A DNA stretch of 57,247 nt from a virus, in IMG/VR virus record IMGVR_UViG_3300010970_000087; one strand, written 5' to 3'. Shown one piece after another: positions 7,806-38,378 of the stretch. Under the pieces are notes generated by a model that saw only the letters and a program-made list of their open reading frames with translations, had not been told where the DNA came from and ran no database searches. Position 1 is the stretch's first letter. The number at the start of each line of letters is the position of its first letter. Position numbers and translations under genes: made by a program.

Positions 7806-8020
7806 TGATGCAGAATTTTGATAAGTTTTATAGCAAGGTGAGTGCACTAGCTGATGAGCAATTGGTTGTTAAGAAACAAAAGCCATCTAAAGGATTGTTA
7901 GCTAAAAGCGATATGTCTTCTAAAGATGTTCAACAAAATAATGATGTTTATAATCAAGTTGCAAAATATATTGCAGCCATCCGTAGACAGAAGCAGGAGA
8001 TTATGAATGGCAAATCCTAA
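7805..8020 (+). CDS. Hypothetical protein (71 aa)
   Basis: ATG 7805 shares one base with the upstream TGA (TGATG); the track start 7787 lies inside the previous gene. Confidence 0.55.
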   Translation: MMQNFDKFYSKVSALADEQLVVKKQKPSKGLLAKSDMSSKDVQQNNDVYNQVAKYIAAIRRQKQEIMNGKS

Positions 8021-8489
8021 TATGTTTTTATCTGCCCCTATTGCAGGGCAGTCTTTAACTGTTGAGCCGGGTAATGTTCCTTGGGAACAACCCCCTCAAT
8101 ATGTTAAGCTTGAAGATGTTGTAAATTATTACACAGAGAAGATTGATGATCCAGAAATTATTCTGGACATTTTGGAAATTGTCAAAAGAGACATCCCAAT
8201 CTTAACTCTCGTTAACACTCTCACTAAAACTGCAGTGATGAATGGATATCACACTGTTGATGTTGGCTACTTAGTCACTCCCATTCTTGTAGAGATGATT
8301 AAGACTATTGCCGAACTCAATGACATTACTTATGTTGTTTCTGCTGAAGAGAAGCAAAACAAAGGGCGGGCTGATCCTAGAGTTATTATAGAGCTTATTA
8401 AAGACATGAAGAAAGAAACTACCGCTGAACCTATGCCAGAGGCTGAGAAGCCTTCTGCTAAGGGATTGATGGCAAGAGGAGATAAATAA
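8007..8489 (+). CDS. Hypothetical virion-module protein (160 aa)
   Basis: ORF overlapping both neighbours; C-terminal tail SAKGLMARGDK. Confidence 0.6.
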   Translation: MANPNMFLSAPIAGQSLTVEPGNVPWEQPPQYVKLEDVVNYYTEKIDDPEIILDILEIVKRDIPILTLVNTLTKTAVMNGYHTVDVGYLVTPILVEMIKTIAELNDITYVVSAEEKQNKGRADPRVIIELIKDMKKETTAEPMPEAEKPSAKGLMARGDK

Positions 8490-24760: not shown

Positions 24761-26374
24761 TTACAACATATTATTGTCACTCATATAATTTTCTACCTCA
24801 ACTAGGCGGTTAATGTTCTTATCAAAGTACAGAGCACCTGCGGGTCCTGTCTCTCCCGTAAAGCGTGACTTCAGGAGGCGAAGCTCAGTGGTGTTGCGCC
24901 TCATCTCATCATCATCCTGCTGATCACGCTGTAAGCCAATGACTGCATCTGACAACTGGCTAATGCCTTGAGTACCTCGTAATGAAGAGAGACTAATCTC
25001 AGCCCCATTCTCAAGCCCCTGTCCTTGTTGTCTACGAGTGTGTGAGATACCAAACAAACCTACGCCTGTCTCTTCAACAAAGGTACGCAGCTTAGTCAAT
25101 AACATATCTAAGCCCTTACGCTCATCAGTATCCATACCAGACAAGATCATTTGATAATGATCCAAGATGATCCATTGGCAGTTCTGTCCTTTCACCATGT
25201 AGCGTAGGCGATTAAGGACATTGTCAATATCAAGCGAGCCAAAGTGATTGAACAACACACAGCGACCAGTGCCCATCGTACTGTCATAGCATTTCTTTAG
25301 TTCATCCTCTGTATATTCCACATGAGGAAGATGTAAAGGTTTCCCTGCTTCGATAGACATAATACCTAAGGCTGTACGCTCAGGAGATTCTTCTAAGAAA
25401 GCCATACCAATATTGTCATTGGTTGTCATGAGCAAGTGGTGGATAAGCTGTCTTAAGAATGTAGATTTACCCTGCCCAGTTCCTGCTGCAATGGTAATAA
25501 GCTCACGCTTGCGTAGACCTGCCATCATCTCATTCAGTTTGGCATACGGCCATGAAGCGTCAGGAAGTTGCTTAGGCTTCTTCAATTGTTCCCACAAGTC
25601 AGCACCATTAATAATGCCATCTGGTTTGTAGGGTTCAGCAGCCCACCATCTAGAAACAAAGGCAGCTTCCTTGCCTTCAGCAAGCCACTCGCATGCATCC
25701 TTGTATGCAGGGTCTGGTTTAAATATCTTGCACTTGCTGCCAAACAATTCAGCAACTTCCTTCGCTGCCTTCTGTCCTGCCTCATCACCATCAAAGCACA
25801 GCACAATGTTTTCAAAGCTGTTGATATATTCGTAATGGGCTTTGGCATCCTTCAATGCACTACCTGCACCTGTGCGAATAGACACCACAGGATATTTACT
25901 TCCTGTCAATTGGTATGCAGCCAGTGCATCAAACTCACCTTCAGTGATGGTGAGGTATTTGCCATTGGAGGGGTATAGGTTCTGTCCAAACAGTGTGCCT
26001 TTGCTCCATCCACCTACGGTAGTAAATTTCTTGTCCTTCACTTCCCTACGCTTAGCTGCAACAAGCTGTGAGTTGCTGTCGTAATAAGGAAAGAAATAAT
26101 AACCACCACTACGGACAACACCATAGCGTTCCATTGTGGTTTTGTTAATGCGTCTATCAGCTACAGAAACACTGTAGCCTTCGTTGTATTCCTTCAGGAA
26201 AGAGCTTGTGTCCTTACTGTCTGTATCAATATCAATCACTTCAAGTCTTTCATTGTTCGTTGATGGGATGTATGTATTACATACAAAACATTTGGTGGAC
26301 ATGTCATCATTGATGGACAAGCCATCACTACTTCCACATGTCTCACAAGGTTGATGTGTTTTTAGGAAAGTCAT
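24761..26374 (-). CDS. Bifunctional primase-helicase (T7 gp4-like)
   Basis: Zn finger CETCGS...CFVCNT, TOPRIM motifs ITEGEFDALAA and DGDEAGQKAA, Walker A AAGTGQGKST, and a DnaB-type C-terminal half. Confidence 0.9.
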   Translation of the reverse strand: MTFLKTHQPCETCGSSDGLSINDDMSTKCFVCNTYIPSTNNERLEVIDIDTDSKDTSSFLKEYNEGYSVSVADRRINKTTMERYGVVRSGGYYFFPYYDSNSQLVAAKRREVKDKKFTTVGGWSKGTLFGQNLYPSNGKYLTITEGEFDALAAYQLTGSKYPVVSIRTGAGSALKDAKAHYEYINSFENIVLCFDGDEAGQKAAKEVAELFGSKCKIFKPDPAYKDACEWLAEGKEAAFVSRWWAAEPYKPDGIINGADLWEQLKKPKQLPDASWPYAKLNEMMAGLRKRELITIAAGTGQGKSTFLRQLIHHLLMTTNDNIGMAFLEESPERTALGIMSIEAGKPLHLPHVEYTEDELKKCYDSTMGTGRCVLFNHFGSLDIDNVLNRLRYMVKGQNCQWIILDHYQMILSGMDTDERKGLDMLLTKLRTFVEETGVGLFGISHTRRQQGQGLENGAEISLSSLRGTQGISQLSDAVIGLQRDQQDDDEMRRNTTELRLLKSRFTGETGPAGALYFDKNINRLVEVENYMSDNNML

Positions 26375-27759: not shown

Positions 27760-28031
27760 TTGTTAATCTCCACATTCATTGGTTTAAATTCCTCAATCAC
27801 TCTTACAAGAGAGGTGATGAGGTGTTGATCTTGATCGTGCTTAAGTTCATAACTGAGTAGCCACTCAAGCTGCTCAAGCACCACTGCCTCTTGTTCCATC
27901 TGATTCAACTGCATAGGTTTCTCCTTTATAAGTCTAGCTACCATATCCATCTTAGTGCAATAGCTTTTTATCCAAGCCTTGTCACTGTCTCTATCGTACA
28001 CTTGTCTACATTTAGAACATCTGTATCTCAT
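27756..28031 (-). CDS. Hypothetical protein (91 aa) with N-terminal Cys cluster
   Basis: RCSKCRQ...YC; ATGA overlap with the integrase stop. Confidence 0.55.
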   Translation of the reverse strand: MRYRCSKCRQVYDRDSDKAWIKSYCTKMDMVARLIKEKPMQLNQMEQEAVVLEQLEWLLSYELKHDQDQHLITSLVRVIEEFKPMNVEINK

Positions 28032-29131
28032 ATAAGTTCCCTCATGTCCTGAGCCACTGTCGCACTACGCAAGGTGTTCTTGATGTAGGGCGTTAGGCTT
28101 TGTGGTGTGGCATGTCCTGACACTGACATGATGTTGGTGATAGGTACACCCACCTCAATCATCTCAGTGATTGCTGTCCTTCGCAAGTCTTGCAACACTA
28201 AGTCACTAGGCAAAGCAGCCTCAGTCATAATTTGTTTAGCAACCCTAGACAAATTGAACAGGCTGTAAGGCATCAAGCCACCCTTCCTATCAGGAACATT
28301 AGATGGTGCAATGTATTGTTGCCACCCAAACTCAGCATGTTGTTGTCTCAACATGGTGAGCAAGCCTTGGCTTGTCGGTATAGTCACCCTAGACCTACGC
28401 TTGCTTTGTTCCAAGTGCAACACACCCTTGTCTAGGTCTACTTGATCCCATCTAAGCTTACGCATATCCCCCATACGCTGTCCATATTCATAAGCCATCT
28501 GAACTATCAGCCCTACATTGCGCCATTTGAATGTGCTGTAGGCTGTGTTCATGAAGGCTCTGACATCTTCCCTAGTCCACACTGTTCTTCGTGGCTTGTC
28601 TGCCCTGCGAAGCACCTTGCTGAAGGGATTGTGGGTGATGTAGCCATGACGAATAGCGAAGTTGAATAACAAACGATAGACAGCTAGGGTGTGGTTAGCT
28701 AGGCTAACACTGTGCTCAGCATGTTCCTCATATATCTTCTGACAATGCGGAGTGACTAAGTCTCCTAGCTTGCATTGATACAGAGGCACACCATTAGCTT
28801 TGCTGTCTTGCCATCCTTGCAAGTAATACATGTAGTCACGCTGTGCCTTTATACTAAGTTTGGTATAAGTGATGTTGTTCTTATACGCTTTGATTAGTTC
28901 ATGCACCTTCGTCTTCTCAGAGATATCTTTTAGATATCTAAGTTCTTTACGCCAGTTGTCTAGCATGGCATTAAGTTCTTCAGCTAAGGCAAAGGCTTTG
29001 CTTTTGTCAGTGCCAAGCACACGCCTAGCCACCACCCCTGCATCCACTGCATCCTGTGGTGGGTTGTACCTGTACTTTGTTATGCCTTCGGCAGCCTTCG
29101 CCAAGGTGACATATCTAGGTAGCTTACTCAT
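28028..29131 (-). CDS. int: Tyrosine recombinase / phage integrase
   Basis: C-terminal catalytic pattern MGDMRKLRW..., LQDLRRTAITEM, SGHATPQSLTPYIKN (R...H-x-x-R...H...Y); SAM-like N-terminal half. Confidence 0.85.
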   Translation of the reverse strand: MSKLPRYVTLAKAAEGITKYRYNPPQDAVDAGVVARRVLGTDKSKAFALAEELNAMLDNWRKELRYLKDISEKTKVHELIKAYKNNITYTKLSIKAQRDYMYYLQGWQDSKANGVPLYQCKLGDLVTPHCQKIYEEHAEHSVSLANHTLAVYRLLFNFAIRHGYITHNPFSKVLRRADKPRRTVWTREDVRAFMNTAYSTFKWRNVGLIVQMAYEYGQRMGDMRKLRWDQVDLDKGVLHLEQSKRRSRVTIPTSQGLLTMLRQQHAEFGWQQYIAPSNVPDRKGGLMPYSLFNLSRVAKQIMTEAALPSDLVLQDLRRTAITEMIEVGVPITNIMSVSGHATPQSLTPYIKNTLRSATVAQDMRELI

Positions 29132-29288: not shown

Positions 29289-29482
29289 TTGTCTCTCGCC
29301 TCCATCATCATGTCAGCCATCTTGTAAGCCCTTGCAGGAATCTCTTCATCTTTAAGAACCCATCCACTACCAAGCATAGCTTGCATAGTCTTAGCTGCGA
29401 AGTAGTCACGCAAGGTCATGCCATCACTACCTAGTCCTGTATAGGGGAATGCTTGTTGCGGTTCAGTTTGTTCCATCGTCAC
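29285..29482 (-). CDS. Hypothetical protein (65 aa)
   Basis: ORF overlapping the ARH gene end by 20 nt. Confidence 0.55.
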   Translation of the reverse strand: MTMEQTEPQQAFPYTGLGSDGMTLRDYFAAKTMQAMLGSGWVLKDEEIPARAYKMADMMMEARDK

Positions 29483-30305
29483 CTCCTAGTGCATAAAGTT
29501 TTTCTGCCATATTAATCAAGTTGTCTTTGTTTACTAGCTTGTCAAGCCATCTAGTGGGTATACCCTTCAGTCCATACTTACGCCCTGCCAACATACCAGT
29601 GACAGCACCAACAGTGTCAGCGTCATAGCCCTTGTTCACTGCCATCACTAAAGCTTTCTCAAAGCTTGATGTTTCTTCAACACATTCCCATGCTGTGATG
29701 TAAGCGTGGTTGATTGTTCCCCTGCTACCATAGTCACGCTGATGACGGAGGTAGTCAAAGGCATCGTCCTTCTTACCTGACATAAGCTCAGTGACAAAGG
29801 CAGTGATGTAATGCACAGTGTCTGTGTTGCCATGCGTCATCAATGACACAGCAATGCTCTGTGCCAAAGCATGAGGCATGCTGTTGTGATTGGCTAACAC
29901 AATGGGAGCAAGTCGCATGATAGATCCATTACCACTGGAGCTATAGCTACAGCTACCTGCATAGGGATGTGTTGGTGTGATGCGGTCAATAGCTTCACTG
30001 CATGTCCTGCCAATGTCAAAGACATAGTTGCGAGTACCAAAGTGTCCTGTCTTCTTCCACATCTTGAAGTTCATGGCAATGGCTTCAGGATTGAAGCGCT
30101 TGCTAGTAATGTATGCATCAGCAATTGCTACAGCCATAGCGCCATCGTCTGTCCACTCACCAATGGCAGTGTCATGCACACCACCACCTTCCATCTCTGT
30201 CAATGTCTTCGTCATCTCATGTGGTCTAACAAATTCCAAGGGTGCACCCAGTGCATCACCAATGAACAGACCCATGAACATACCAATTGCTTTATCTTGA
30301 TGCAT
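29463..30305 (-). CDS. ADP-ribosylglycohydrolase family protein (DraG/ARH-like)
   Basis: GLFIGDALGAPLEF, GEWTDDGAMAVA and GYDADTVGAVTGMLAG: all metal-binding Asp motifs appear present. Confidence 0.85.
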   Translation of the reverse strand: MHQDKAIGMFMGLFIGDALGAPLEFVRPHEMTKTLTEMEGGGVHDTAIGEWTDDGAMAVAIADAYITSKRFNPEAIAMNFKMWKKTGHFGTRNYVFDIGRTCSEAIDRITPTHPYAGSCSYSSSGNGSIMRLAPIVLANHNSMPHALAQSIAVSLMTHGNTDTVHYITAFVTELMSGKKDDAFDYLRHQRDYGSRGTINHAYITAWECVEETSSFEKALVMAVNKGYDADTVGAVTGMLAGRKYGLKGIPTRWLDKLVNKDNLINMAEKLYALGGDDGTN

Positions 30306-30609: not shown

Positions 30610-31452
30610 TTAAGCGAAGGCAATGTCTTCGGCAATGTTCCACAACTCTGAGTTGATGCGGATGTTTTCTTTCACGCTGTTAACAGGACGAGCCTTACGC
30701 ATCACTCCTTCGGGGTGCTTGTTAGACAGGCTCTTAACAAATGCACTGCCACGGATAACACCTTCTTGAATGCGGTTGAACACAGTGAATGCATCCATGT
30801 AGTTGTCTTCGTAACGAGAGACATGCAACACATCAGCAATGGTTTTAGGTGTGGCATACACACCATTGGTCTGCTCTTCGAGCATGTCCCATCGTGTCTC
30901 AACACCACGCTTAGCCATCAGCACAGACTGATGTGGGTCAAGGGTAACACTACGCAACTTCTCAAGACGCTCCATCATGGTGGGCAATGTAGCCACAGTG
31001 TTACGAAGCATCTCTTCAAAGCCACTCAGTGCCTTGCTGTGATAGATGCGAGACTGGAAACCATCACCTGCCACAATGCCATTGGAGCAGATGAAGCGGA
31101 AGCAACCTGCAAACAACTTCACAGAGCCTGAACCATCGTGAGAGTTGTACAAAATAATCTCAGGGCGAATGTCGCCAGTGCCAAAGTCAATGTCCCATGT
31201 CTTAGCGAAGGCTAACATGTGGGCTGAGTGAGCAGGGTTGAGGCTACGGCTACGCTTCTGTGCCGCTTGCACTGGAGCATATCCATAGTCTTGCATTACA
31301 GGGATGATGTCGCTTGTGTTGAGAGACACATAACGATCTGTCAACTTGTCAGACTTGGTTGTGCTGAAAGCAGCAGGGGCAAGCTGTTGAATACGCTCTG
31401 TTGTAAGAGCAGAGTTGTTTGCATTGCGAGAGAAGATTACATGTTTAGCCAT
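30610..31452 (-). CDS. DUF932 family protein (phage/plasmid-like)
   Basis: 280 aa. The N-terminal ...LTDRYVSLNTSDIIPVMQDYGYAPVQAAQKRSR...HMLAF layout is typical of DUF932, recognised from memory of the family. Confidence 0.7.
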   Translation of the reverse strand: MAKHVIFSRNANNSALTTERIQQLAPAAFSTTKSDKLTDRYVSLNTSDIIPVMQDYGYAPVQAAQKRSRSLNPAHSAHMLAFAKTWDIDFGTGDIRPEIILYNSHDGSGSVKLFAGCFRFICSNGIVAGDGFQSRIYHSKALSGFEEMLRNTVATLPTMMERLEKLRSVTLDPHQSVLMAKRGVETRWDMLEEQTNGVYATPKTIADVLHVSRYEDNYMDAFTVFNRIQEGVIRGSAFVKSLSNKHPEGVMRKARPVNSVKENIRINSELWNIAEDIAFA

Positions 31453-31457
31453 GATGT

Positions 31458-31468
31458 TTCCTTAGGAA
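31458..31468 (-). promoter_or_regulatory. Palindromic RBS cassette (TTCCTAAGGAA) 5 nt before ATG 31452
   Basis: Member of the 8-copy motif family (see findings). Confidence 0.6.
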
Positions 31469-31498
31469 GAGTGAATGAGTGTCAGCAACTGACGAATA

Positions 31499-31529
31499 AT
31501 TATAACCACAAAAGAAGGGGCAGTGTCAA
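31499..31529 (-). promoter_or_regulatory. Sigma70-like promoter: TTGACA-N19-TATAAT
   Basis: Minus-strand TTGACA (31529-31524) and perfect TATAAT (31504-31499). The spacer is 19 nt (long). It lies 47 nt upstream of ATG 31452. Confidence 0.5.
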
Positions 31530-31535
31530 GCCCCT
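31509..31535 (-). terminator. Rho-independent terminator candidate
   Basis: Minus strand AGGGGC-ttgacact-GCCCCT followed by TCTTTTGTGG, 5 nt after the stop at 31541. The loop carries the -35 of the next promoter. Confidence 0.6.
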
Positions 31536-31540
31536 ACAGA

Positions 31541-31759
31541 TTAGTCGGTCTTTTTAACCAACGGAATAACATCTACCCAAGCGGCTAGATGAATAGTATC
31601 TCCGAACATATCTAGGCAGTAGCTATACATGCCATCGATGTGATCGAAGTAGAAGACAACGCCAGTGTTTGGCATTTGTATATAGCTCTTAGGCTTGACG
31701 GAAAACAGCGGTGTCACTGGTTGTTTGTCAAAGTCCCTGATGTCTACATCACTTAACAT
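31541..31759 (-). CDS. Hypothetical protein (72 aa)
   Basis: Start at MLSDVDIRDF (ATG 31759), overlapping the upstream ORF end. Confidence 0.55.
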   Translation of the reverse strand: MLSDVDIRDFDKQPVTPLFSVKPKSYIQMPNTGVVFYFDHIDGMYSYCLDMFGDTIHLAAWVDVIPLVKKTD

Positions 31760-31913
31760 ATGGGTAGAACCTTTCGTATTCTTGTTTAATAAACAATCGT
31801 TTTGTTTTCTGTCCTTCGGCATAGCCTAAGACATACATAGCATTTGTCCATTCCTTAGACAAGGGCAGACTACGCAAGCCATGAGCAAAGCCTAAGCTGT
31901 AGCTTACATCCAT
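31749..31913 (-). CDS. Hypothetical protein (54 aa)
   Basis: Start at MDVSYSLGF (ATG 31913), overlapping the micro-ORF stop. Confidence 0.45.
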   Translation of the reverse strand: MDVSYSLGFAHGLRSLPLSKEWTNAMYVLGYAEGQKTKRLFIKQEYERFYPYVK

Positions 31914-31975
31914 ATCAGCACCATGCCTACAGCAAACAGCACAACAAACCAAGTGTACAAGGTTTCATCACTCAT
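31904..31975 (-). CDS. Micro-ORF, 23-aa hydrophobic peptide
   Basis: MSDETLYTWFVVLFAVGMVLIWM; overlaps both neighbours. Confidence 0.25.
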   Translation of the reverse strand: MSDETLYTWFVVLFAVGMVLIWM

Positions 31976-32060
31976 GTCTAGGGATAGGTGGTGTGTTAGC
32001 AGGTAATGGATGAGCAGGGAAAGGCCATGTTGGTGGCGGTGGAGGGGGTGCTTTAAGCAT
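31968..32060 (-). CDS. Micro-ORF, 30-aa Pro-rich peptide
   Basis: MLKAPPPPPPTWPFPAHPLPANTPPIPRHE; overlaps both neighbours. Confidence 0.25.
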   Translation of the reverse strand: MLKAPPPPPPTWPFPAHPLPANTPPIPRHE

Positions 32061-32220
32061 TGGCTGAGTCCTTTCGTTGTACATGTTTAGCTAACAACCA
32101 CTTGTCACCTAAGTGCCTAATGCTTCGCACCCACTGCCGTTGGTTGTGTCGATTGATACGCTGATCAATACCCTGTGTGTTGAACAATTGTCTCACATGC
32201 TTTAGCATCTTTGTATTCAT
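32053..32220 (-). CDS. Small basic protein (55 aa)
   Basis: MNTKMLKHVRQLFNTQGIDQRINRHNQRQWVRSIRHLG...; ATG lies 1 nt after the upstream stop. Confidence 0.5.
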   Translation of the reverse strand: MNTKMLKHVRQLFNTQGIDQRINRHNQRQWVRSIRHLGDKWLLAKHVQRKDSANA

Positions 32221-32221
32221 T

Positions 32222-32419
32222 TCATTCCTTAACAATACGGAAGTTTCCAAAATCCACCTGCTCTTTGTTGGCAAAGAACAACCCATCGAGGTAGCGCTCC
32301 AGTGCCAGTGAAGCATCGTTCAATGTGTGGTAACGCTTAGGTTTGTAGTCACCACTGTCTGTCACATCAAACTCTAGACAGTGCCACTTGTCACGCAGTC
32401 TTGCTTGTATCTTGTACAT
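32222..32419 (-). CDS. Hypothetical protein (65 aa)
   Basis: Start chosen at MYKIQARL (AAGG lies 7 nt upstream); overlaps the upstream ORF by 29 nt. Confidence 0.45.
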   Translation of the reverse strand: MYKIQARLRDKWHCLEFDVTDSGDYKPKRYHTLNDASLALERYLDGLFFANKEQVDFGNFRIVKE

Positions 32420-32687
32420 ATGCATACCTTTCATAAGAACGGATCTTGCTGTCACCATCGGTGTGTTTAGTGACCCACTTGATGGATACATTGTCAGAGT
32501 GTAAGCGTTGCAACAGCAACGACAAGTCACAGTCTTCCTCAAGGTAGACATTGTCTTTGTACTGGTAGCTGTAGCTGCTTACATCAGGGGCAATGCCCAA
32601 GTTCTCCAACACCTTACGCTTCACCTTGCCCCATCCATGTCCTGCATCGGTGTATACAGTGATGGTGAATGTCTTCTGTTCTGTCAT
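32391..32687 (-). CDS. Hypothetical protein (98 aa)
   Basis: ATGA overlap with the upstream small ORF; DAGHGWGKV...YLEEDCD motif of unknown function. Confidence 0.6.
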   Translation of the reverse strand: MTEQKTFTITVYTDAGHGWGKVKRKVLENLGIAPDVSSYSYQYKDNVYLEEDCDLSLLLQRLHSDNVSIKWVTKHTDGDSKIRSYERYAYVQDTSKTA

Positions 32688-32851
32688 GCGGTTTCCTTAA
32701 TAATCTCAACAGCTTCCTTCACTGCCTGTCTGAATTCACGCTTAGTGCATTCACTAAAGTCTAGGAATGTACCCATTACATCTTGAATTTTAATTGCCTG
32801 TGACACAGTGCAACCTAGTTGATCAATGATCCATTGTGTATAGAGGTTCAT
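32684..32851 (-). CDS. Small hypothetical protein (55 aa, below the track cutoff)
   Basis: MNLYTQWIIDQLGCTVSQAIKIQDVMGTFLDFSECTKREFRQAVKEAVEIIKETA; ATGA overlaps at both ends. Confidence 0.5.
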   Translation of the reverse strand: MNLYTQWIIDQLGCTVSQAIKIQDVMGTFLDFSECTKREFRQAVKEAVEIIKETA

Positions 32852-33036
32852 TTCAATTCCTTCACAGGGACGATGTATCTATGCACCTCATCACCTTGTT
32901 TGTTATACACATACAAGTGCAACACTGTGTTCTCCATGACGGAGTCAAGGTAGCACTCAACATATCCATTGTTCTTACCAATGTTAATCACTGTGGATTT
33001 AACAAAGTTATCCAAGGTTTCTACTGTCAGTTTCAT
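32848..33036 (-). CDS. Hypothetical protein (62 aa)
   Basis: ATGA overlaps at both ends. Confidence 0.55.
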   Translation of the reverse strand: MKLTVETLDNFVKSTVINIGKNNGYVECYLDSVMENTVLHLYVYNKQGDEVHRYIVPVKELK

Positions 33037-33485
33037 AGGTTGTTCTCAATAATGTATTCGGCATCGGCAATGTCTTTGTACAGGGTACTAATCCATGTGC
33101 CATCTTCGATGTATCGATTAGACGATTCAGTCAGTCGCTTAAGCACCCATCGAATGTCAGCCTTAGCACCCTTGGCAATGACAGGGAATTGCTCATGCCG
33201 TTCCATGCCTCGGATGAATGCATACCAAACCTTTGACTTGGGAGTGTAGAAGGTTGATGCAATTTCCTTACGCTCATACTTCTTTGTCATGTGGGGATGA
33301 ACATAAGCATAGTGTCTACCGAAGGTGTAGGCTGTCTCTTCCTGCTTGGTGGTTGTCAGTCCTAAGATGACATCCCTTGCTTCATCGAGAGTGACCCATG
33401 TGTTATCACCATTGGCATCACAAGCATAATCACCATTGGACATCTCCACCATGTAACCTTCGGTTGTTTTAATCACTGTGTTCAT
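33033..33485 (-). CDS. Hypothetical protein (150 aa)
   Basis: ORF in the ATGA-coupled chain. Confidence 0.65.
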   Translation of the reverse strand: MNTVIKTTEGYMVEMSNGDYACDANGDNTWVTLDEARDVILGLTTTKQEETAYTFGRHYAYVHPHMTKKYERKEIASTFYTPKSKVWYAFIRGMERHEQFPVIAKGAKADIRWVLKRLTESSNRYIEDGTWISTLYKDIADAEYIIENNL

Positions 33486-33673
33486 GTGTTCACCTGTAAT
33501 ATTGCTTCAACAATTTCCCAATCACCTACAGTTCCCTGCTCCATTGGTATGAACTCACCACCATCCATGTTACTAGCTATCTCAATAGCTTCAGCATTAC
33601 TGGTGGCTTCTACATATTCATAACAATATGTAGACATCTTAGCTATCACTTTATATCGCTTATTCGTAGTCAT
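33482..33673 (-). CDS. Hypothetical protein (63 aa)
   Basis: Start at MTTNKRYKV (ATG 33673), overlapping the upstream stop. Confidence 0.55.
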   Translation of the reverse strand: MTTNKRYKVIAKMSTYCYEYVEATSNAEAIEIASNMDGGEFIPMEQGTVGDWEIVEAILQVNT

Positions 33674-34175
33674 CACATGCTCCTTCCATAACATCATGCA
33701 GTGCAACACCATACATCAGGTCATCAGCACTGTTCTCGAAAGCTTGGCGAGTGTCCTCAATCATTTCAATGATGTTCTCACTAGGATAGTCTTCGATCAC
33801 CTCCCAAAGAATGATGTCGAAATCACCTGAGCAAAAAGAATCAAGCCCTATCACTTGAAGAACAGATGCATAGGACATGGTGTCAGGATAGTCAGACAGC
33901 CATTGCTCCAGTGCAAACCTCTCACTCACCTTCATCTTCACAGGGAAGTCAAGGTCAGCACTCACCATGTAGAAGCATCGTCCATCACGAAGCTTCACAT
34001 AACAGTAGGGGTGAGTGTCAGTATCAACGGGATCACTGCCCTGAGTGGCATCAACAAGGTCATCAGCCGTTAGGTAGATAACATCTACCAAAGTGTCATA
34101 GTTCTCGAAGCTCTTACCTGCAGGGACGGACATGCCTTCCTCTGCTAGGTCTGTTCTCATACGGATTGTTTGCAT
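33660..34175 (-). CDS. Highly acidic early protein (171 aa)
   Basis: Very Asp/Glu-rich throughout (e.g. DDLVDATQGSDPVDTDTH, EVIEDYPSENIIEMIEDT, ACDDYE); preceded by a palindromic RBS cassette. Confidence 0.65.
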   Translation of the reverse strand: MQTIRMRTDLAEEGMSVPAGKSFENYDTLVDVIYLTADDLVDATQGSDPVDTDTHPYCYVKLRDGRCFYMVSADLDFPVKMKVSERFALEQWLSDYPDTMSYASVLQVIGLDSFCSGDFDIILWEVIEDYPSENIIEMIEDTRQAFENSADDLMYGVALHDVMEGACDDYE

Positions 34176-34369
34176 GGTGTGTTTCCTTTCAGGATTAGTT
34201 CTCGCTTAATGAAGGGCAGGTAAACTTTGTTACCAAAGAATTGATGCTCAAACAATTGATCGTCAACGATCTTGTCTGAGTGTGCTCTTGCTGCTTTCAA
34301 TGTCTTGAAAGAAGCAACAGGGCTAGTGCTATTGGGATAGCACACAATGTATTTGAATCTGTATCTCAT
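34157..34369 (-). CDS. Hypothetical protein (70 aa)
   Basis: Start at MRYRFKYIV (ATG 34369); reads through the RBS cassette of the next gene. Confidence 0.5.
   Translation of the reverse strand: MRYRFKYIVCYPNSTSPVASFKTLKAARAHSDKIVDDQLFEHQFFGNKVYLPFIKRELILKGNTPCKQSV
34183..34195 (-). promoter_or_regulatory. Palindromic RBS cassette (aTCCTGAAAGGAA) 7 nt before ATG 34175
   Basis: Member of the 8-copy motif family. Confidence 0.55.
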
Positions 34370-34373
34370 ATGC

Positions 34374-34754
34374 TTACCACCATGAGTCGTAGAACACTGC
34401 CTTGCCATCGGCAATGGCTTGCCTTGATAGCTTGACGAAGTCAGCCACACTCTCTAGGTCTTCCGGATATATACATGATGTATCACCGAAGAAGAACCCA
34501 TTACGAGGCACTAGCTTGTTAGCACCAACATCCATCTCCAGTCTGTCTAGATCTTTTAGATCAAGACGAACAGTGGTGCAATTGAAGCTGTCCTTAGCAC
34601 CACCCTTAAGGCGGTAGAGATCCTCCATCCAACCATGCAGAGCATTGAACTTACGCCAGTAGCTGATCTGCATAGCGTCATCAAGTGCCACATCAACAGT
34701 GGCATCACCTACGCTGTCAGCATTGACAGCAAATGCATACATATCAAGTCCCAT
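34374..34754 (-). CDS. Conserved hypothetical protein (126 aa)
   Basis: Start at MGLDMYAFAV behind AAGGAA; ...ISYWRKFNALHGWM... pattern seen in many phage proteins of unknown function. Confidence 0.6.
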   Translation of the reverse strand: MGLDMYAFAVNADSVGDATVDVALDDAMQISYWRKFNALHGWMEDLYRLKGGAKDSFNCTTVRLDLKDLDRLEMDVGANKLVPRNGFFFGDTSCIYPEDLESVADFVKLSRQAIADGKAVFYDSWW

Positions 34755-34905
34755 AATTATTCCTTGGAAAGTTAATTGTTGAGTAATAAAAGTCGAGGAT
34801 TTCATCCTCTGTCAGCTCGAAGTCTATGTCACTGAGTGCCACAGCAATGCCAATGTCATAGTTGTTACGAGACAAGCCTGTCTCGAATATCAGAGGGGTC
34901 TTCAT
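34744..34905 (-). CDS. Small hypothetical protein (53 aa, below the track cutoff)
   Basis: MKTPLIFETGLSRNNYDIGIAVALSDIDFELTEDEILDFYYSTINFPRNNYGT. Confidence 0.4.
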   Translation of the reverse strand: MKTPLIFETGLSRNNYDIGIAVALSDIDFELTEDEILDFYYSTINFPRNNYGT

Positions 34906-34906
34906 G

Positions 34907-35050
34907 TCACCTACTGCAAACATGCATCACCATCCTGTCCTCATCCACTGTCAGCCACACCTTTTTAGTGACAGTGTCATACACCACAATGTCACCGACA
35001 TTGATAGGTGCTCCGGTCTTACAACAAATACCCTTGTATTTGGCTTTCAT
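34907..35050 (-). CDS. Small hypothetical protein (47 aa, below the track cutoff)
   Basis: MKAKYKGICCKTGAPINVGDIVVYDTVTKKVWLTVDEDRMVMHVCSR; ATGA overlap with the upstream stop. Confidence 0.4.
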   Translation of the reverse strand: MKAKYKGICCKTGAPINVGDIVVYDTVTKKVWLTVDEDRMVMHVCSR

Positions 35051-35241
35051 GATGCGTTCCATGTTGACTCCCATTGTTGTTCTTCAATCCACCAAGTGCC
35101 ATTGGTAACACACTCTTTCAGAGTGTCAGCACAGCCAATATAAGCACCATCCTCCCTGTCGTTAAACAGTTCGTATATCTCAGCTTCGCTGTCCCACTTA
35201 GCCCACACCTCGTAGCCGTGTTTCTCTAAGATCTTTTTCAT
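35047..35241 (-). CDS. Hypothetical protein (64 aa)
   Basis: ATGA overlaps at both ends. Confidence 0.55.
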   Translation of the reverse strand: MKKILEKHGYEVWAKWDSEAEIYELFNDREDGAYIGCADTLKECVTNGTWWIEEQQWESTWNAS

Positions 35242-35648
35242 GGAAAACTCCTCATGTAAATAACACCACGCTTGATGCCATCTGCCATCGGCATCACCTT
35301 CATTGCCACCACATCAGCCTTATCCACAGGTTGTTCAGTGGTTTTGTATACAAAGCTGTCATACTTATAAGGGTTATAAGTAACTTGCCTACCTACAATG
35401 CTGATGAAATCAAATTGATTGTCAGCCCTGTTAGTGCAGTAGTTAATCCAAGTGCCACTAACTCCTGCATGGACATTCTTACGCTTCTCTCGAAGCACTC
35501 GCTGTCGTCCCGCCTCAGACACCAACAGCTTGCATCCATCAAGCACCACAGTGTCACGATGGGCAATCACTCTACCCTTGTCAGCACCTTCCAAGGCTTT
35601 AATGCTGAAGCATTTCTTATGCAGGTTGAAATAGACGAATACTCTCAT
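35238..35648 (-). CDS. Hypothetical protein (136 aa)
   Basis: ATGA overlaps at both ends. Confidence 0.65.
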   Translation of the reverse strand: MRVFVYFNLHKKCFSIKALEGADKGRVIAHRDTVVLDGCKLLVSEAGRQRVLREKRKNVHAGVSGTWINYCTNRADNQFDFISIVGRQVTYNPYKYDSFVYKTTEQPVDKADVVAMKVMPMADGIKRGVIYMRSFP

Positions 35649-35878
35649 GCTGTCACCTCTAATTCGTAAGATAAAATCTTAAACTCACCATTGCCATGAA
35701 GCATCAGTGCCTTCAAATCCTCTTCACCATCTACGAAGTAGAAGATGCGAGAATCAGGGACACCGAAACTATCAGTTTCATTCTCGTAATGCTCACCACC
35801 AAAGCTGAAGTATGCTCCCTCAATGGGAGTGTCTTCATCGTTAAACAGCACAGAAGCTGTAGCACCAATAACTTTCAT
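35645..35878 (-). CDS. Hypothetical protein (77 aa)
   Basis: Start at MKVIGATAS (ATG 35878), 5 nt after an RBS cassette. The track start 35914 would translate the cassette itself. Confidence 0.55.
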   Translation of the reverse strand: MKVIGATASVLFNDEDTPIEGAYFSFGGEHYENETDSFGVPDSRIFYFVDGEEDLKALMLHGNGEFKILSYELEVTA

Positions 35879-35883
35879 TGTGT

Positions 35884-35896
35884 TTCCTTTCAGGAA
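35884..35896 (-). promoter_or_regulatory. Palindromic RBS cassette TTCCTGAAAGGAA 5 nt before ATG 35878
   Basis: The loop TGA is the stop codon of micro-ORF 35890..35967. Confidence 0.6.
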
Positions 35897-35967
35897 AAGA
35901 GGGTTAATAACCAAACCTTCACAGCAACAAATGCTGCAAAGCAGAGCACACCTATTACATATTCCAT
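35890..35967 (-). CDS. Micro-ORF, 25-aa hydrophobic peptide
   Basis: MEYVIGVLCFAAFVAVKVWLLTLFS, bracketed by two RBS cassettes. Confidence 0.35.
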   Translation of the reverse strand: MEYVIGVLCFAAFVAVKVWLLTLFS

Positions 35968-35972
35968 GTTAT

Positions 35973-35984
35973 TTCCTTTAGGAA
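35973..35984 (-). promoter_or_regulatory. Palindromic RBS cassette TTCCTAAAGGAA 5 nt before ATG 35967
   Basis: The loop TAA is the stop codon of 35978..36115. Confidence 0.6.
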
Positions 35985-36115
35985 AGATGTTTAGCCCAAC
36001 GCTTCTCTACCACCTTGTGCACCTCTTCCAGAGGACAAGCAAGCAGATCAGCCACTTCCTGACATGACAACCTTGTATTAGATAATACAAAGTTGATACG
36101 CTCATCAAGTGTCAT
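35978..36115 (-). CDS. Small protein (45 aa), helix-turn-helix-like
   Basis: MTLDERINFVLSNTRLSCQEVADLLACPLEEVHKVVEKRWAKHLS; begins 1 nt after the upstream stop (TGAtATG). Confidence 0.4.
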   Translation of the reverse strand: MTLDERINFVLSNTRLSCQEVADLLACPLEEVHKVVEKRWAKHLS

Positions 36116-36116
36116 A

Positions 36117-36374
36117 TCATTTCCTTTCAGGAAAGAAACTCATGTTAGTTTCTTTGTTGTCACAATCCATCATCTCAAACAGGATTGATTTAGCCCTGTT
36201 CAGATACTGCCTAGCAGTCTCTGTATCACCCAGTGCCATTAGCTCTTGAGCATCTGACATAAGCCCCGCCACTATCATCCCACCACCTGAAAGGCGGTAG
36301 CTGATTGAGTCTCTGACGCTTTCCTTGAAAGCTGTGATGTCACAGCCATACATTGTGATTTCTTTGGTTGTCAT
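36117..36374 (-). CDS. Hypothetical protein (85 aa)
   Basis: Start 5 nt after an RBS cassette; its own 3' end reads through the next cassette. Confidence 0.6.
   Translation of the reverse strand: MTTKEITMYGCDITAFKESVRDSISYRLSGGGMIVAGLMSDAQELMALGDTETARQYLNRAKSILFEMMDCDNKETNMSFFPERK
36121..36133 (-). promoter_or_regulatory. Palindromic RBS cassette TTCCTGAAAGGAA 5 nt before ATG 36115
   Basis: Member of the 8-copy motif family. Confidence 0.6.
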
Positions 36375-36379
36375 GTTGT

Positions 36380-36392
36380 TTCCTTTCAGGAA
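36380..36392 (-). promoter_or_regulatory. Palindromic RBS cassette TTCCTGAAAGGAA 5 nt before ATG 36374
   Basis: The loop TGA is the stop codon of 36386..36601. Confidence 0.6.
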
Positions 36393-36601
36393 GCCATTGC
36401 TTCAGCCAGTGCATTTTCACTGTCGATAGTGACAGCATCAAACACCTGTTGCTTCGTGCCTTTGTAACCCATACTCTTCAAAATTGCATAGCAAGTTTGA
36501 CCCTTGGCGGTAAGTCTCATGCCTCGCATCTCAGCTTTAAGACCTTGTCTTAAGACACGAAGACGATAAGCATTGATTTGTTCCGGTGTAGTTAATACCA
36601 T
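36386..36601 (-). CDS. Hypothetical protein (71 aa)
   Basis: Start 5 nt after an RBS cassette. Confidence 0.6.
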   Translation of the reverse strand: MVLTTPEQINAYRLRVLRQGLKAEMRGMRLTAKGQTCYAILKSMGYKGTKQQVFDAVTIDSENALAEAMAS

Positions 36602-36606
36602 TTTGT

Positions 36607-36618
36607 TTCCTTTAGGAA
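36607..36618 (-). promoter_or_regulatory. Palindromic RBS cassette TTCCTAAAGGAA 5 nt before ATG 36601
   Basis: Member of the 8-copy motif family. Confidence 0.6.
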
Positions 36619-36923
36619 AAGAGAAGCGACCTTGCTTCTGTTAAAGCTAAGCTTTAGCCCTAACAGAAACCCACTGTCTAGCACCGACCCCAGTGCCACA
36701 ATGGAAAATGTCTCTCACACATATTATCAGCATGATATGTAAGCATGCCCTGCACATTCACCTTGTACAGGCTAGGCTAGTCCATAGCAATGATGCTTGC
36801 CTTGCTAATAGCAAGCACCCTCACCGACACTAGTATCAATTTTTAAAGAGCAAGTCGAGATAAGCTTCGCTTCACAGCGGGACAAATCCCTATAAAGAAC
36901 GCTAGATAACATTCTCCAAAGAA

Positions 36924-36938
36924 GGTAGCTATGCTACC
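36924..36938 (-). terminator. Terminator candidate GGTAGC-ata-GCTACC + TTCTTTGG
   Basis: Lies 30 nt downstream of the stop at 36968 on the minus strand. Confidence 0.4.
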
Positions 36939-36967
36939 CCTTTAGGCAAGGCTATCGTAAGCTTTGC

Positions 36968-37660
36968 TTACACAACAAAACCAGTGGTATCAAGCTTCGC
37001 TTTACCTTTGGCATACAAACCGACAATGACTTTGTCATCAAGGTGACGAACATCTGAGTTGTCTCCAGAGACAACAGGAATTCCCATAAATGTCTGAGGA
37101 ATATCTTGTTCCTTACGGAACACTACAGCAATTCTCATTTGCTTTTTCAAAGCCTTGGCAACAAAAGGCTGAAAGCCTTCGACACCGGAATAGCTGAATG
37201 TCAAATCATAGTTGGCAGGTAAATCTTTACGATTTACATCTTTGGTGTAATCGTAGAATTGAACATCGGGAAACATCTGAAAGATGTTCTTTTTGGTGTA
37301 GCTCACCTCGATGGTTTCCCATCGAATGTCACTTGTACCATTCAATCTAACTAACGGAGTTAGACCGAGCTTTTTAGCCTTAGCGACAAGCTTTTTAATA
37401 TCTTCAGCAAGCTGAAGCATGAAGCTTTCAGTGCTGTCAAAAAACCATTCGGTTTTACGAATCCTAGCCAATTGAACGGAGTTCATAGCACCTCGTCCTG
37501 CTGTATACAAACAAGCCTTGTCACACTGAGCAACCTTAGCCATTGAACAAGTGTTCCACTTGGTAGTGGTAGCCGGAGCAAGGTATAAAATACCTGTCAA
37601 AAATCCAAGGCTTTCACCTTTGGTGGTTTTGGCATCGGTGGAGACGGACAACAATTTCAT
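36968..37660 (-). CDS. GP88-family protein (conserved phage protein, function unknown)
   Basis: 230 aa. The pattern KGE-x-LG-x-LTGILYLAP...C...C...AGRG...VRLNGTSDI-x-WE...FYDYTK...NYDLTFS...VVF...GDNSDVRHLD...GLYAKGKAK is as recalled for Pfam GP88. Confidence 0.6.
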   Translation of the reverse strand: MKLLSVSTDAKTTKGESLGFLTGILYLAPATTTKWNTCSMAKVAQCDKACLYTAGRGAMNSVQLARIRKTEWFFDSTESFMLQLAEDIKKLVAKAKKLGLTPLVRLNGTSDIRWETIEVSYTKKNIFQMFPDVQFYDYTKDVNRKDLPANYDLTFSYSGVEGFQPFVAKALKKQMRIAVVFRKEQDIPQTFMGIPVVSGDNSDVRHLDDKVIVGLYAKGKAKLDTTGFVV

Positions 37661-37665
37661 GGTGT

Positions 37666-37678
37666 TTCCTTTCAGGAA
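37666..37678 (-). promoter_or_regulatory. Palindromic RBS cassette TTCCTGAAAGGAA 5 nt before ATG 37660
   Basis: Member of the 8-copy motif family. Confidence 0.6.
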
Positions 37679-37737
37679 GAGTGTGGCAACATTGCCGTTG
37701 AGCTTTCAATTGTAACGATGACGAATAACCCTGTCAA

Positions 37738-37993: not shown

Positions 37994-38080
37994 CATGTCT
38001 TTCATTTAACTTAAGAGAAAAAGTATTTCCCTTTCTCATACTGATGAAAGGGATACTTTTTCTGTTAAATGAAAGACATG
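37994..38080. repeat. 87-nt near-perfect palindrome
   Basis: Outer arms catgtctttcatttaac (37994-38010) and gttaaatgaaagacatg (38064-38080) are perfect. Inner arms agaaaaagtatttccctttc / gaaagggatactttttct differ by one extra T. Confidence 0.9.
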
Positions 38081-38103: not shown

Positions 38104-38173
38104 CTTTGTATTTTTAAACAAAAGAAGATGCCAACATAGTTGTCATATCTTTTGTGTATATAAAAATACAAAG
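38104..38173. repeat. AT-rich 13-bp inverted repeat pair (ctttgtattttta / taaaaatacaaag)
   Basis: 38104-38116 and 38161-38173 are exact reverse complements and flank an AT-rich segment. Confidence 0.85.
38105..38134 (-). promoter_or_regulatory. Weak sigma70-like promoter candidate (TTGGCA-N18-TACAAA) facing the early arm
   Basis: Minus-strand TTGGCA at 38134-38129 and TACAAA at 38110-38105. Confidence 0.25.
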
Positions 38174-38184
38174 TGACTAGGGAG

Positions 38185-38250
38185 TTATCCACAAGTTGTC
38201 ATTGAGCCATACCGTTATGCTGTGGATATCGTTAGGTTTGCTGTGGATAA
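38185..38250. promoter_or_regulatory. Cluster of three DnaA-box matches
   Basis: TTATCCACA at 38185-38193 (perfect), TGTGGATAT at 38221-38229 (8/9, inverted) and TGTGGATAA at 38242-38250 (perfect, inverted). The last two sit in a direct repeat GCTGTGGATA. Confidence 0.6.
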
Positions 38251-38378
38251 CTTAGCATTGGGATATGGTAATGACGGGGTATATTTGCTTAAAAATTAAG
38301 CAAGATGGGGTAGGGTTTAAAAAGGGTTGATTTATATACCACCTAGGGTATGTCTCGATGTTGCTTAAAAAATAGGCA

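Follow-up and report, generated by a model that had tools for sequence, protein, structure and literature searches.

Results

The cassette in the window

The viral DNA analyzed in this study, IMG/VR virus record IMGVR_UViG_3300010970_000087, is referred to below as the window (the whole stretch of 57,247 nucleotides), and along the first ~6 kb of its minus-strand arm it carries eight copies of a short palindromic cassette, TTCCT-(G)AA-AGGAA or a close variant, each placed just before a start codon as part of the putative ribosome-binding site (RBS). By its gene content and homologies the window is the genome of an HMO-2011-type podophage: the portal protein shares 76% identity with its counterpart in MW202701, an uncultured podovirus from Manatee Spring, and 58–72% identity with those of Puniceispirillum phage HMO-2011 and the roseophage CRP group. 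The terminal stretches 12–149 and 56955–57092 of the window are repeats of one another in identical contexts, which makes it a complete, circularly permuted phage genome of ~56.9 kb. The minus-strand, early arm runs from ~38.4 kb down to 15 kb and begins with small open reading frames (ORFs), which are followed by the DUF932 gene and the genes for ADP-ribosylglycohydrolase, integrase, primase-helicase, family A DNA polymerase, ThyX, and ribonucleotide reductase, while the plus-strand arm encodes the terminase, portal, capsid, and tail proteins.

A search for TTCCT-N1-3-AGGAA gave nine exact matches in the window against 0.23 expected, a number that none of 100 shuffled sequences reached, and the initial annotation, which had described a repeated cassette before eight starts, is upheld on this point. 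Read on the minus strand, seven of the exact copies are separated from an ATG by precisely 5 nt. The eighth start-associated site, cassette 7 in Table 1, is the one exception, in agreement with the count of seven of eight given initially: its spacer is 7 nt long, and its 5' arm is ATCCT, which breaks the outer pair and is common in relatives (26 contexts). The remaining two exact matches (26189–26200 and 28284–28296) are inside long ORFs with no start codon after them, and the proposed confinement of the motif to the first ~6 kb therefore holds for the RBS-positioned copies but not for the bare sequence. The loop stop codons at 35890, 35978, and 36386 are, as had been noted, real stops of upstream ORFs, and the gene upstream of cassette 4 (36117–36374) crosses the whole cassette and stops in the spacer (TGAtATG). 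Cassette 1 serves the first gene after a predicted sigma70 promoter, whose -10 region is conserved in relatives, and is located ~25 nt past the predicted transcription start in a 5' untranslated region (UTR) of ~42 nt. The promoter-like unit before cassette 8 has its -35 hexamer in the loop of a terminator-like hairpin (31535–31516; AGGGGC..GCCCCT and a T-run), and this promoter-in-terminator arrangement is also conserved in relatives. A late gene of the window (1598) uses GAAAGGAAAACATCATG, which has no 5' arm.

Table 1. Positions of the cassettes and of associated features in the window
Feature	Coordinates	Strand	Sequence, spacer, and start	Context
Cassette 1	37666–37678	-	TTCCTGAAAGGAA, ACACC, ATG 37660	GP88-family gene 36968–37660
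Cassette 2	36607–36618	-	TTCCTAAAGGAA, ACAAA, ATG 36601	3' end of the ~340-nt structured non-coding RNA
Cassette 3	36380–36392	-	TTCCTGAAAGGAA, ACAAC, ATG 36374	Loop TGA 36388–36386 ends ORF 36386–36601
Cassette 4	36121–36133	-	TTCCTGAAAGGAA, ATGAT, ATG 36115	
Cassette 5	35973–35984	-	TTCCTAAAGGAA, ATAAC, ATG 35967	Precedes 25-codon ORF; loop TAA 35980–35978 ends ORF 35978–36115
Cassette 6	35884–35896	-	TTCCTGAAAGGAA, ACACA, ATG 35878	Loop TGA 35892–35890 ends 25-codon ORF
Cassette 7, imperfect	34183–34195	-	ATCCTGAAAGGAA, ACACACC (7 nt), ATG 34175	5' arm ATCCT
Cassette 8	31458–31468	-	TTCCTAAGGAA, ACATC, ATG 31452	DUF932 gene 30610–31452; last of the early segment
Early promoter, sigma70-type	37709–37737	-	TTGACA-N17-TACAAT	11/12 match; upstream of cassette 1
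Promoter-like unit	31499–31535	-	TTGACA 31529–31524, N19, TATAAT 31504–31499	Before cassette 8
Structured non-coding RNA, ~340 nt	36619–36967	-		Between GP88-family gene and cassette 2; contiguous with the cassette, not part of it
Tyrosine integrase (PF00589) and ADP-ribosylglycohydrolase (PF03747)	28028–29131 and 29463–30305	-		Just downstream of the DUF932 gene

Distribution among relatives

For comparison, 122 IMG/VR loci from uncultured viral contigs, designated by L numbers below, were fetched with the GP88-family and DUF932 proteins of the window. Most of them carry the motif, at 1–11 copies per cassette-bearing locus, and removal of duplicates left ~250 distinct RBS-positioned sites. 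Across these relatives the full unit is approximately yTTCCT(G)AAAGGAAACAmmATG, ~20 nt long and always in the sense of the gene, and therefore what is conserved extends beyond the palindrome described initially and includes a 5' pyrimidine and an A/C-rich spacer. The most frequent loop is GAA, followed by AA and then by TA, GAT, or A; a start codon follows 155 of the 160 GAA-loop sites, 192 of the 302 contexts in which a site is associated with a start (counted on both strands) have 5 nt between it and the ATG, and the spacer takes the conserved forms ACAAC, ACAAA, or ACACA. Among 13,910 candidate starts, each an ATG that opens an ORF of 40 codons or more, AGGAA was by far the commonest 5-mer at positions -10 to -6, with 425 contexts. 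A perfectly complementary 5' arm accompanies 44% of these AGGAA sites but just 1 of 60 (~2%) AGGAG sites, which are almost never preceded by CTCCT, and pairing is therefore peculiar to this cassette rather than general among RBSs.

In the 27 relatives in which both flanks of the DUF932 gene are available, 127 cassettes lie within ~8 kb upstream of this gene and four more at its own RBS, whereas none was found in the 234 kb downstream of it. This contrast of 131 sites with none makes the restriction to the early arm stronger than could be known from the window alone. Taken together, the comparison indicates that the cassette is a real translation signal, which is lineage-wide in uncultured freshwater HMO-2011-type podophages and restricted to the initial ~7 kb of the early arm.

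Neither the marine type phage HMO-2011 nor Limnohabitans phage DC31 has the cassette, and it is also missing from the more distant relatives L045, L046, L048, L120, and L121. MW202701 also lacks the exact motif and has instead GTTCTATAGGAy twice and TTAGGAAACAcc-type sites. Some of the distant relatives possess their own stereotyped early RBSs that contain no palindrome, AAAACTGAAAAGGAAAyGACCAAATG in L120 and L121 (about 8000–9400) and (C)CGGAGATTTTATTATG in L045, L046, and L048 (about 7980–12700), suggesting that standardized early RBS units may be general in this phage group. A search of 185,579 species genomes for the 21-mer cassette returned 19 hits, all of them single copies dispersed over diverse bacteria, and no locus with several copies.

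Loop, stop codon, and spacer

Nearly all of the common loops (GAA, AA, TA, A, and GAT) form a stop codon, TGA or TAA, with the last T of the 5' arm. Of 251 sites, 89 have a loop stop that terminates an upstream open frame of 40 codons or more, and at another 58 the frame so terminated has 20–39 codons. If the upstream gene is instead taken to be the longest nearby-ending frame of 35 codons or more, its stop is in the loop in 73 of the 251 sites and within 30 nt upstream in 45, and at the other sites it is further away or there is no upstream ORF. The GAA loop also lengthens the Shine-Dalgarno (SD) sequence to GAAAGGA; this extension, the conserved spacer, and the position of the cassettes at junctions of gene gain and loss had not been recognized in the initial annotation. 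The sequence (G)AAAGGA is complementary to a 16S rRNA tail of the ...CCUCCUUUCU-3' (CCUUUC) type. Such complementarity, if the host has a tail of this type, would explain both the GAA/AA loop and the invariant 3' arm, and an invariant 3' arm, combined with pairing, would then fix the 5' arm. The spacer is A/C-rich and almost never contains G, and therefore it cannot pair with the pyrimidine arm.

Evidence that the two arms pair

Sites for the analysis of pairing were chosen by orthology and not by the motif. In an alignment of the GP88 5' UTR (29 distinct sequences), the cassette helix is 94.5% paired and three of its five pairs change on both sides, while controls slid along the same alignment are 29–65% paired. 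The whole two-helix structure of this leader has a covariation score of 0.194 compared with 0.102 in shuffles; none of 500 shuffles matched the observed score or the fraction paired, and four matched the number of both-side changes. The 5' arm is kept even in these untranslated leaders, where the adjacent bases vary.

The clearest substitution of this kind is TTACC-(G/A)AA-GGTAA in L026, L049, L034, and L037, which differs from TTCCT-GAA-AGGAA by two compensated pairs, pair 3 being A:U instead of C:G and pair 5 C:G instead of U:A, at the same length and position. Because L034, L037, and L049 also have canonical cassettes before other genes, what is kept within one genome is complementarity rather than a single recognition sequence. 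Another cassette, that of L044, reads GTTCT-TA-AGGAC. In the DUF932 leaders the commonest form is UUUCU-UA-AGGAAA, with a U.G pair, and the diverged leaders have UCCU-UUA-AGGA, UCCU-AUA-AGGA, UCCU-AAU-AGGA, or UUCC-acuaa-GGAA, so that the SD sequence is always faced by a complementary pyrimidine run, though the loop and the register drift.

Single changes in the 5' arm, counted in a fixed register with AGGAA held constant, are strongly biased. At position 3, C is replaced by T in 14 cases and by another base in 6, and at position 4 in 11 cases and 1 case, respectively; the internal changes overall comprise 25 C-to-T replacements, which give G.U pairs, and 7 others, with no T-to-C change at position 2. 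The outermost position 1 is loose (ATCCT 26, CTCCT 21). In the sense RNA a C-to-T change leaves a G.U pair, but the opposite strand would then have an A.C mismatch and a DNA-binding dimer would find one half-site broken, and the bias therefore favors a hairpin in mRNA. The comparative evidence thus supports the view, already put forward in the initial annotation, that the two arms behave as a base-paired stem whose 3' arm is the SD sequence, as judged from compensatory changes and G.U-biased variation at orthologous sites.

Predicted folding

The bare hairpins are calculated to have free energies of -2.4 (13-mer), -1.6 (12-mer), and -0.8 kcal/mol (11-mer) at 37 °C. In context, the four modelled GAA- and AA-loop sites and the TTACC variant reach -2.8 to -3.9 kcal/mol at 37 °C and about -4.4 to -7.2 kcal/mol at 10–20 °C, and the A-loop site 8 and a wobble variant are weaker, both lying within -0.6 to -1.7 kcal/mol at 37 °C and -2.2 to -3.8 kcal/mol at 10–20 °C. 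The hairpin is present in the predicted minimum free energy (MFE) structure at seven of the eight window sites, with a 5-bp stem at four and a 4-bp stem at three; at site 3, the 5' arm has a competing partner in an alternative GAAGC/GCUUC stem. The predicted probability that the SD guanines are paired is 0.92 for the eight cassette genes compared with 0.55–0.60 for 27 other minus-strand genes and 0.47–0.52 for 20 late genes. In these models, therefore, the SD sequence is specifically masked, but by a weak structure, and because of this weakness at 37 °C occlusion would be modest unless the temperature is low. The earlier proposal that folding occludes the RBS accordingly finds backing in the pairing probabilities and is held back by the low stability of the hairpin at 37 °C, -2.4 kcal/mol for the bare 13-mer and -3.3 to -3.9 kcal/mol in context, compared with -5 to -7 kcal/mol at 10–20 °C.

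Gene shuffling at the cassettes

The early arm of the window was compared with the relatives by blastn, and the junctions were inspected. In L008, L007, and L003 the window genes that are missing are precisely those bounded by cassettes. L008 lacks the window gene 36115–35978, and the join shares 24 nt of the cassette, cassette 4 being the junction. Window sequence 36374–35984 is missing from L007, with 21 nt of cassette shared at the join, and 36371–35648 is missing from L003, where a gp82-like gene gains a cassette that it has also in L005 but not in the window. L005 contains extra genes inserted between cassettes, and cassette 3 is the junction of the gene-content differences with L003, L005, and L007. 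While the flanking coding DNA has diverged to 75–85% identity, the arms, loop, and spacer of the cassette stay highly conserved at the ~250 sites. Internal ends of the high-scoring segment pairs cluster at gene starts in general, with 63% of the ends in 19% of the DNA.

A structured RNA and a second hairpin near the cassettes

The structured non-coding RNA that adjoins cassette 2 is 305–380 nt long in about 35 relatives. It comprises 47 pairs that are 95.4% paired (RNAalifold and pair counting), with 25 of the pairs showing compensatory changes against 3–8 in slid controls, and its many G.U pairs fix the structure to the sense strand. The cassette-less MW202701, L045, L046, and L048 do not have it, and their corresponding gap is ~75 nt. 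Rfam, tRNA, and tmRNA scans of the window, which included this region, returned no family, and the RNA is a candidate for a new phage RNA family encoded in the same operon as the cassettes. Within it lies an invariant boxA-like block, TGCTCTTTAAAAA (36840–36852, minus strand), which has one mismatch to the Escherichia coli rrn boxA consensus TGCTCTTTAACAA, is the only 1-mismatch boxA match in the genome, and is followed by a long covarying hairpin. These features hint that the early operon contains a processive antitermination site of the NusB/NusE type.

The GP88 5' UTR contains, immediately upstream of cassette 1, a second hairpin (GGCAaugUUGCC; 37679–37700, minus strand), which covaries in the leader alignment (GACGGC..GCCGTC, GAGTC..GACTC, and GCAGC..GCTGC). 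An AUG in its loop opens a six-codon mini-ORF, MLPHSS* (37694–37674), that ends at the TGA of cassette 1. This mini-ORF has no SD sequence, and its frame is kept in many but not all of the aligned relatives.

Discussion

A proposed role of the cassette as a portable translation module

The observations described above can be assembled into a scheme in which the cassette is a portable stop/anti-SD/SD/spacer/start module that masks the ribosome site and couples or tunes the translation of early genes, an interpretation to which we give about an even chance of being correct. The mRNA unit reads y-UUCCU-(G)AA-AGGAA-ACAmm-AUG. Its purine half, (G)AAAGGA, would act as an extended SD sequence complementary to a CCUUUC-type 3' tail of 16S rRNA, and its pyrimidine half, UUCCU, as a cis-acting mimic of the anti-SD that forms a 4–5-bp hairpin with the SD across a 1–3-nt loop. 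The hairpin, weak at 37 °C, would be substantial at lake temperatures, and the SD would then be masked in free mRNA. It might be opened by a ribosome terminating at the stop codon shared by arm and loop (U+GA or U+AA), giving termination-coupled initiation at roughly 30% of sites, or directly by a 30S subunit nucleating on the unpaired A residues of the loop. Because the fold is local and self-contained and the spacer is free of G, expression would depend little on which gene lies upstream, and the many identical copies close to each other would provide short homology for the gain, loss, and swap of small early genes. The scheme agrees with an established model of translational coupling, in which a ribosome on the upstream gene unfolds the structure around the RBS (PMC12548453). 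Sequence, pairing, stop codon, and spacer can all be explained by translation without a trans-acting factor.

Several results weigh against this interpretation. Dinucleotide shuffles of the flanked sites fold about equally well (z = -2.6 to +1.5), and the hairpin is thermodynamically weak at 37 °C; de Smit and van Duin reportedly found that initiation at a strong SD sequence is barely lowered by a structure unless its stability reaches about -6 kcal/mol. When orthologous sites with a single mismatch are counted in a free register, 18 G.U and 12 C.A cases are obtained, a ratio that is not decisive. The covariation derives from few independent events, perhaps 3–6, and paired changes could arise mutationally, by template switching within the quasi-palindrome, without selection. 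The loop stop is used at only about 30% (29–35%) of the ~250 sites, and three of the eight sites in the window, which follow a promoter or the non-coding RNA, have no upstream ORF, so that coupling cannot explain the 5' arm there. The stop in the loop, from which a coupling device had been proposed, is real, but at this frequency coupling is not the sole role of the cassette. Translation alone also does not explain the restriction to early genes, unless the early genes are a regulon controlled in trans. As for gene shuffling, each start with a cassette has 27 breakpoints on average and each start without one has 23, and recombination at the cassettes therefore does not appear special; a particular recombinogenic role, which was considered, was not shown. 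The repeats do serve as joints in the junctions inspected, and the shuffling is a consequence of the repeats, not their demonstrated purpose.

Alternative explanations

The restriction to early genes gives weight to a different possibility, unlikely in our estimation, in which the hairpin is the operator of a trans-acting factor, either a phage- or host-encoded RNA-binding repressor or endoribonuclease comparable to RegA or RegB of T4, or the neighboring structured RNA, that switches the early-gene regulon off or on after transcription. The cassette would in that case serve as a recognition tag in addition to folding in cis. In every relative the sites are strictly confined to the early segment, and arms, loop, and spacer are very highly conserved while the flanks have diverged; the hairpin alone seems too weak for strong regulation, and T4 offers a precedent for RBS-directed control of early mRNA (PMC3014915). 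Cassette-bearing phages of the clade also have the ~340-nt structured RNA, which the cassette-less L001, L045, L046, and L048 lack, a co-occurrence that is, however, at the clade level only. Against such a factor, Pfam and PHROG scans of the early and regulatory-region ORFs revealed no RNA-binding or nuclease family and thus no candidate protein, the SD sequence, pairing, stop codon, and spacer without structure can explain all of the conserved features, and the coexistence of the structure-preserving TTACC..GGTAA with canonical cassettes in the same genome argues against strict sequence-specific recognition. It is similarly doubtful that a phage-encoded factor, either an unrecognized small protein or the ~340-nt RNA with its boxA-like element, reads the UUCCU-GAA-AGGAA hairpin in trans as the mark of an early-gene translational regulon and shuts off, activates, or processes all of the early messages at once, but, if so, these abundant uncultured freshwater phages would have a counterpart of RegA/RegB whose RNA operator is defined and portable. 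The palindrome might also be a passenger, only the SD sequence and spacer being functional as a strong consensus RBS, with the 5' arm spread and homogenized by recombination or gene conversion between neighboring junctions and the compensation produced by hairpin-templated mutation. The stereotyped, palindrome-free early RBSs of the distant lineages, the arm-less late site at 1598, the location of cassettes at recombination junctions, and the loosely conserved outermost pair would all be in line with this explanation, but we regard it as improbable: the 5' arm is conserved in untranslated leaders with variable adjacent bases, internal positions of the arm accept almost only G.U-preserving changes, perfect complementarity is a feature of AGGAA and hardly ever of AGGAG sites, and the pyrimidine run facing the SD sequence persists in diverged DUF932 leaders in a different register and with a different loop, which simple copying cannot explain.

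Two further explanations place the function in DNA. A dimeric phage regulator, possibly the repressor, might bind the 11–13-bp palindrome and form roadblocks along the early operon like those at the stoperators of mycobacteriophage L5, as the perfect symmetry and operator-like size of the sites, the presence of an integrase gene, and the limitation of the sites to the early operon, two of them just downstream of promoters, could suggest. A binding site of this kind had been one of the options named in the initial annotation, and it is now disfavored, to the point of being very unlikely, by the strand-asymmetric, G.U-tolerant variation, in which the tolerated mismatches are of the G.U type in the sense strand only, and by the coexistence of different self-complementary cassettes in one genome. 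The fixed 5-nt distance to the ATG with the SD sequence as one half-site and the variable separation of 1–3 nt, which would rotate the half-sites relative to each other, also speak against it, and no helix-turn-helix or repressor family was found in the ORFs scanned. L5 stoperators themselves are asymmetric 13-bp DNA sites distributed through intergenic regions at no fixed distance from ATG. Hairpin promoters of the N4 type, with a 5-bp stem and a 3-nt purine loop, might instead be recognized by an injected virion RNA polymerase (RNAP) that makes leaderless mRNAs from the ATG. The early promoters of N4 match the cassette in stem, loop, and fixed distance to the ATG, and a start ~11–12 nt from the loop center would fall at the ATG. 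The portal protein has weaker matches in groups such as Escherichia, Vibrio, Klebsiella, Ruegeria, Sulfitobacter, and Dinoroseobacter, among which N4-like phages are common, and the virion module includes a 1725-amino-acid ORF to which no function can be assigned. Nevertheless, a sequence-level search with Pfam, PHROGs, and PDB sequences detected no RNAP signature in this ORF or in the other large ORFs scanned, a near-consensus sigma70 promoter stands before cassette 1 and a promoter-like unit before cassette 8, GAAAGGA is a good SD sequence at the correct spacing, the cassettes are inside tightly packed operons with upstream stops in the loop, and the template strand would have A.C wherever a T.G mismatch is tolerated. 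The N4-like promoter was rejected on the lack of an RNAP signal and the presence of sigma70 promoters and seems scarcely credible.

Comparison with known systems

Among known elements, the cassette comes closest to the Start-Associated Sequences (SAS) of Cluster K mycobacteriophages, 13-nt SD-containing repeats situated 3–7 nt before the ATG of non-structural genes in 11–19 copies per genome, all of them in the non-structural half (Pope et al. 2011, PMC3203893), whose function was still unexplained in 2025 (PMC12699233). Both are SD-containing repeats found just upstream of the starts of a subset of non-structural genes of unrelated families, in a single orientation and with a strong bias for ATG; in both, an upstream stop codon is sometimes inside the motif, and both motifs are essentially absent from host genomes. 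Membership in SAS is defined by the consensus GGGATAGGAGCCC with at most two mismatches (PMC3203893, PMC12699233), and the cassette does not match it at this level. The sequence GGGATAGGAGCCC is unrelated to TTCCT(G)AAAGGAA and belongs to siphoviruses of actinobacteria. It is non-palindromic, only the outer GGG..CCC being symmetric, whereas the cassette is a true palindrome with evidence of pairing and a conserved spacer. SAS is often associated with ESAS elements, 17-bp inverted repeats for which RNA pairing was judged unsupported (PMC3203893). The cassette is the same kind of element as SAS but, differing in sequence, hosts, and symmetry, not a member of that family. It can be regarded as an independent second start-associated repeat, in Gram-negative-type podophages, which in contrast to SAS has a simple, testable 5-bp hairpin, comparative support for the pairing of that hairpin, and a sharp limit at the early genes.

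The PeSL (promoter-early stem-loop) cassettes of T4-type phages, which consist of a sigma70-like promoter and a terminator stem-loop and flank small non-essential early genes in hyperplastic regions (PMC2839356, PMC4122927), are short repeats within which indels and replacements between close relatives join. The present cassettes may resemble them in this respect, with clear cases in the 21–24 nt of cassette shared at the L007 and L008 joins but about as many breakpoints at gene starts that have no cassette. They differ in being transcriptional and longer and in having been shown experimentally to recombine into mini-circles, while the cassette is translational and ~20 nt long. It has no promoter hexamers, and the one PeSL-like unit of the window is the separate promoter-in-terminator element before cassette 8. 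SD-sequestering hairpins and RNA thermometers show the same pairing in cis of a pyrimidine stretch with the AGGA of the SD sequence, consistent with the coupling model (PMC12548453). Such hairpins are opened by an upstream translating or terminating ribosome or by temperature; they are known from single loci, are idiosyncratic in sequence, and are usually longer and more stable, whereas the cassette is a minimal hairpin of 11–13 nt placed before many genes in about a hundred genomes. The fourU and ROSE thermometers are examples that are opened by temperature. As in these elements, the SD sequence of the cassette appears to be paired with an upstream complement, according to the in silico and comparative results (covariation, the G.U pattern, the MFE structures, and the probability of pairing). 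The RegA/RegB system of T4 uses features of early RBSs for class-wide control, RegB cleaving GGAG and RegA binding AU-rich RBS regions (PMC3014915), but its sites are not palindromic hairpins, and no RegA or RegB homologue was detected in the phage. The boxB (nut) hairpin of lambda, GCCCUGAAAAAGGGC, has a 5-bp stem and a purine loop and shows a superficial likeness to the cassette (CCUGAAA..AGG). Each early operon has a single such boxA-boxB site, its loop must be a GNRA-like pentaloop, and it does not act as an RBS, and a boxB-like identity was rejected because the cassette is present in eight copies in the window, has 1–3-nt loops, and is fused to the ATG.

The cassette would be a tractable model for the standardized, and possibly co-regulated, translation of fast-evolving early "accessory" genes and for how standard parts may ease gene shuffling, and it might also be useful in synthetic biology as a compact natural insulated RBS or coupling part.

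Other features of the genome

The presence of the integrase and ADP-ribosylglycohydrolase genes indicates that the phage may be temperate. In a search for a prophage or host, the GP88-family protein had no relative in the 185,579 bacterial and archaeal species genomes, and megablast of the region against 50,697 phage records found no near-identical phage DNA, the relatives having been reached via proteins. The 1725-amino-acid ORF (9901–15078, plus strand), which is at the end of the structural module and has no Pfam, PHROG, or PDB-sequence match, presumably encodes an internal virion or ejection protein.

Before the first early ORF, 17-nt perfect arms (37994–38010 and 38064–38080) surround 22-nt arms to form an inverted repeat of ~87 nt in total, which is also present in L002, L003, and L008 as a reverse-strand blastn match, and a second pair has 13-nt arms at 38104–38116 and 38161–38173. 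Three DnaA-box-like 9-mers (TTATCCACA, its complement TGTGGATAt, and TGTGGATAA) are found at ~38185–38255 on the plus strand, within the non-coding region of 38.0–39.4 kb that lies between the divergent arms and near the turning point of the GC skew (~38 kb). This region may be a replication origin or may titrate the DnaA of the host.

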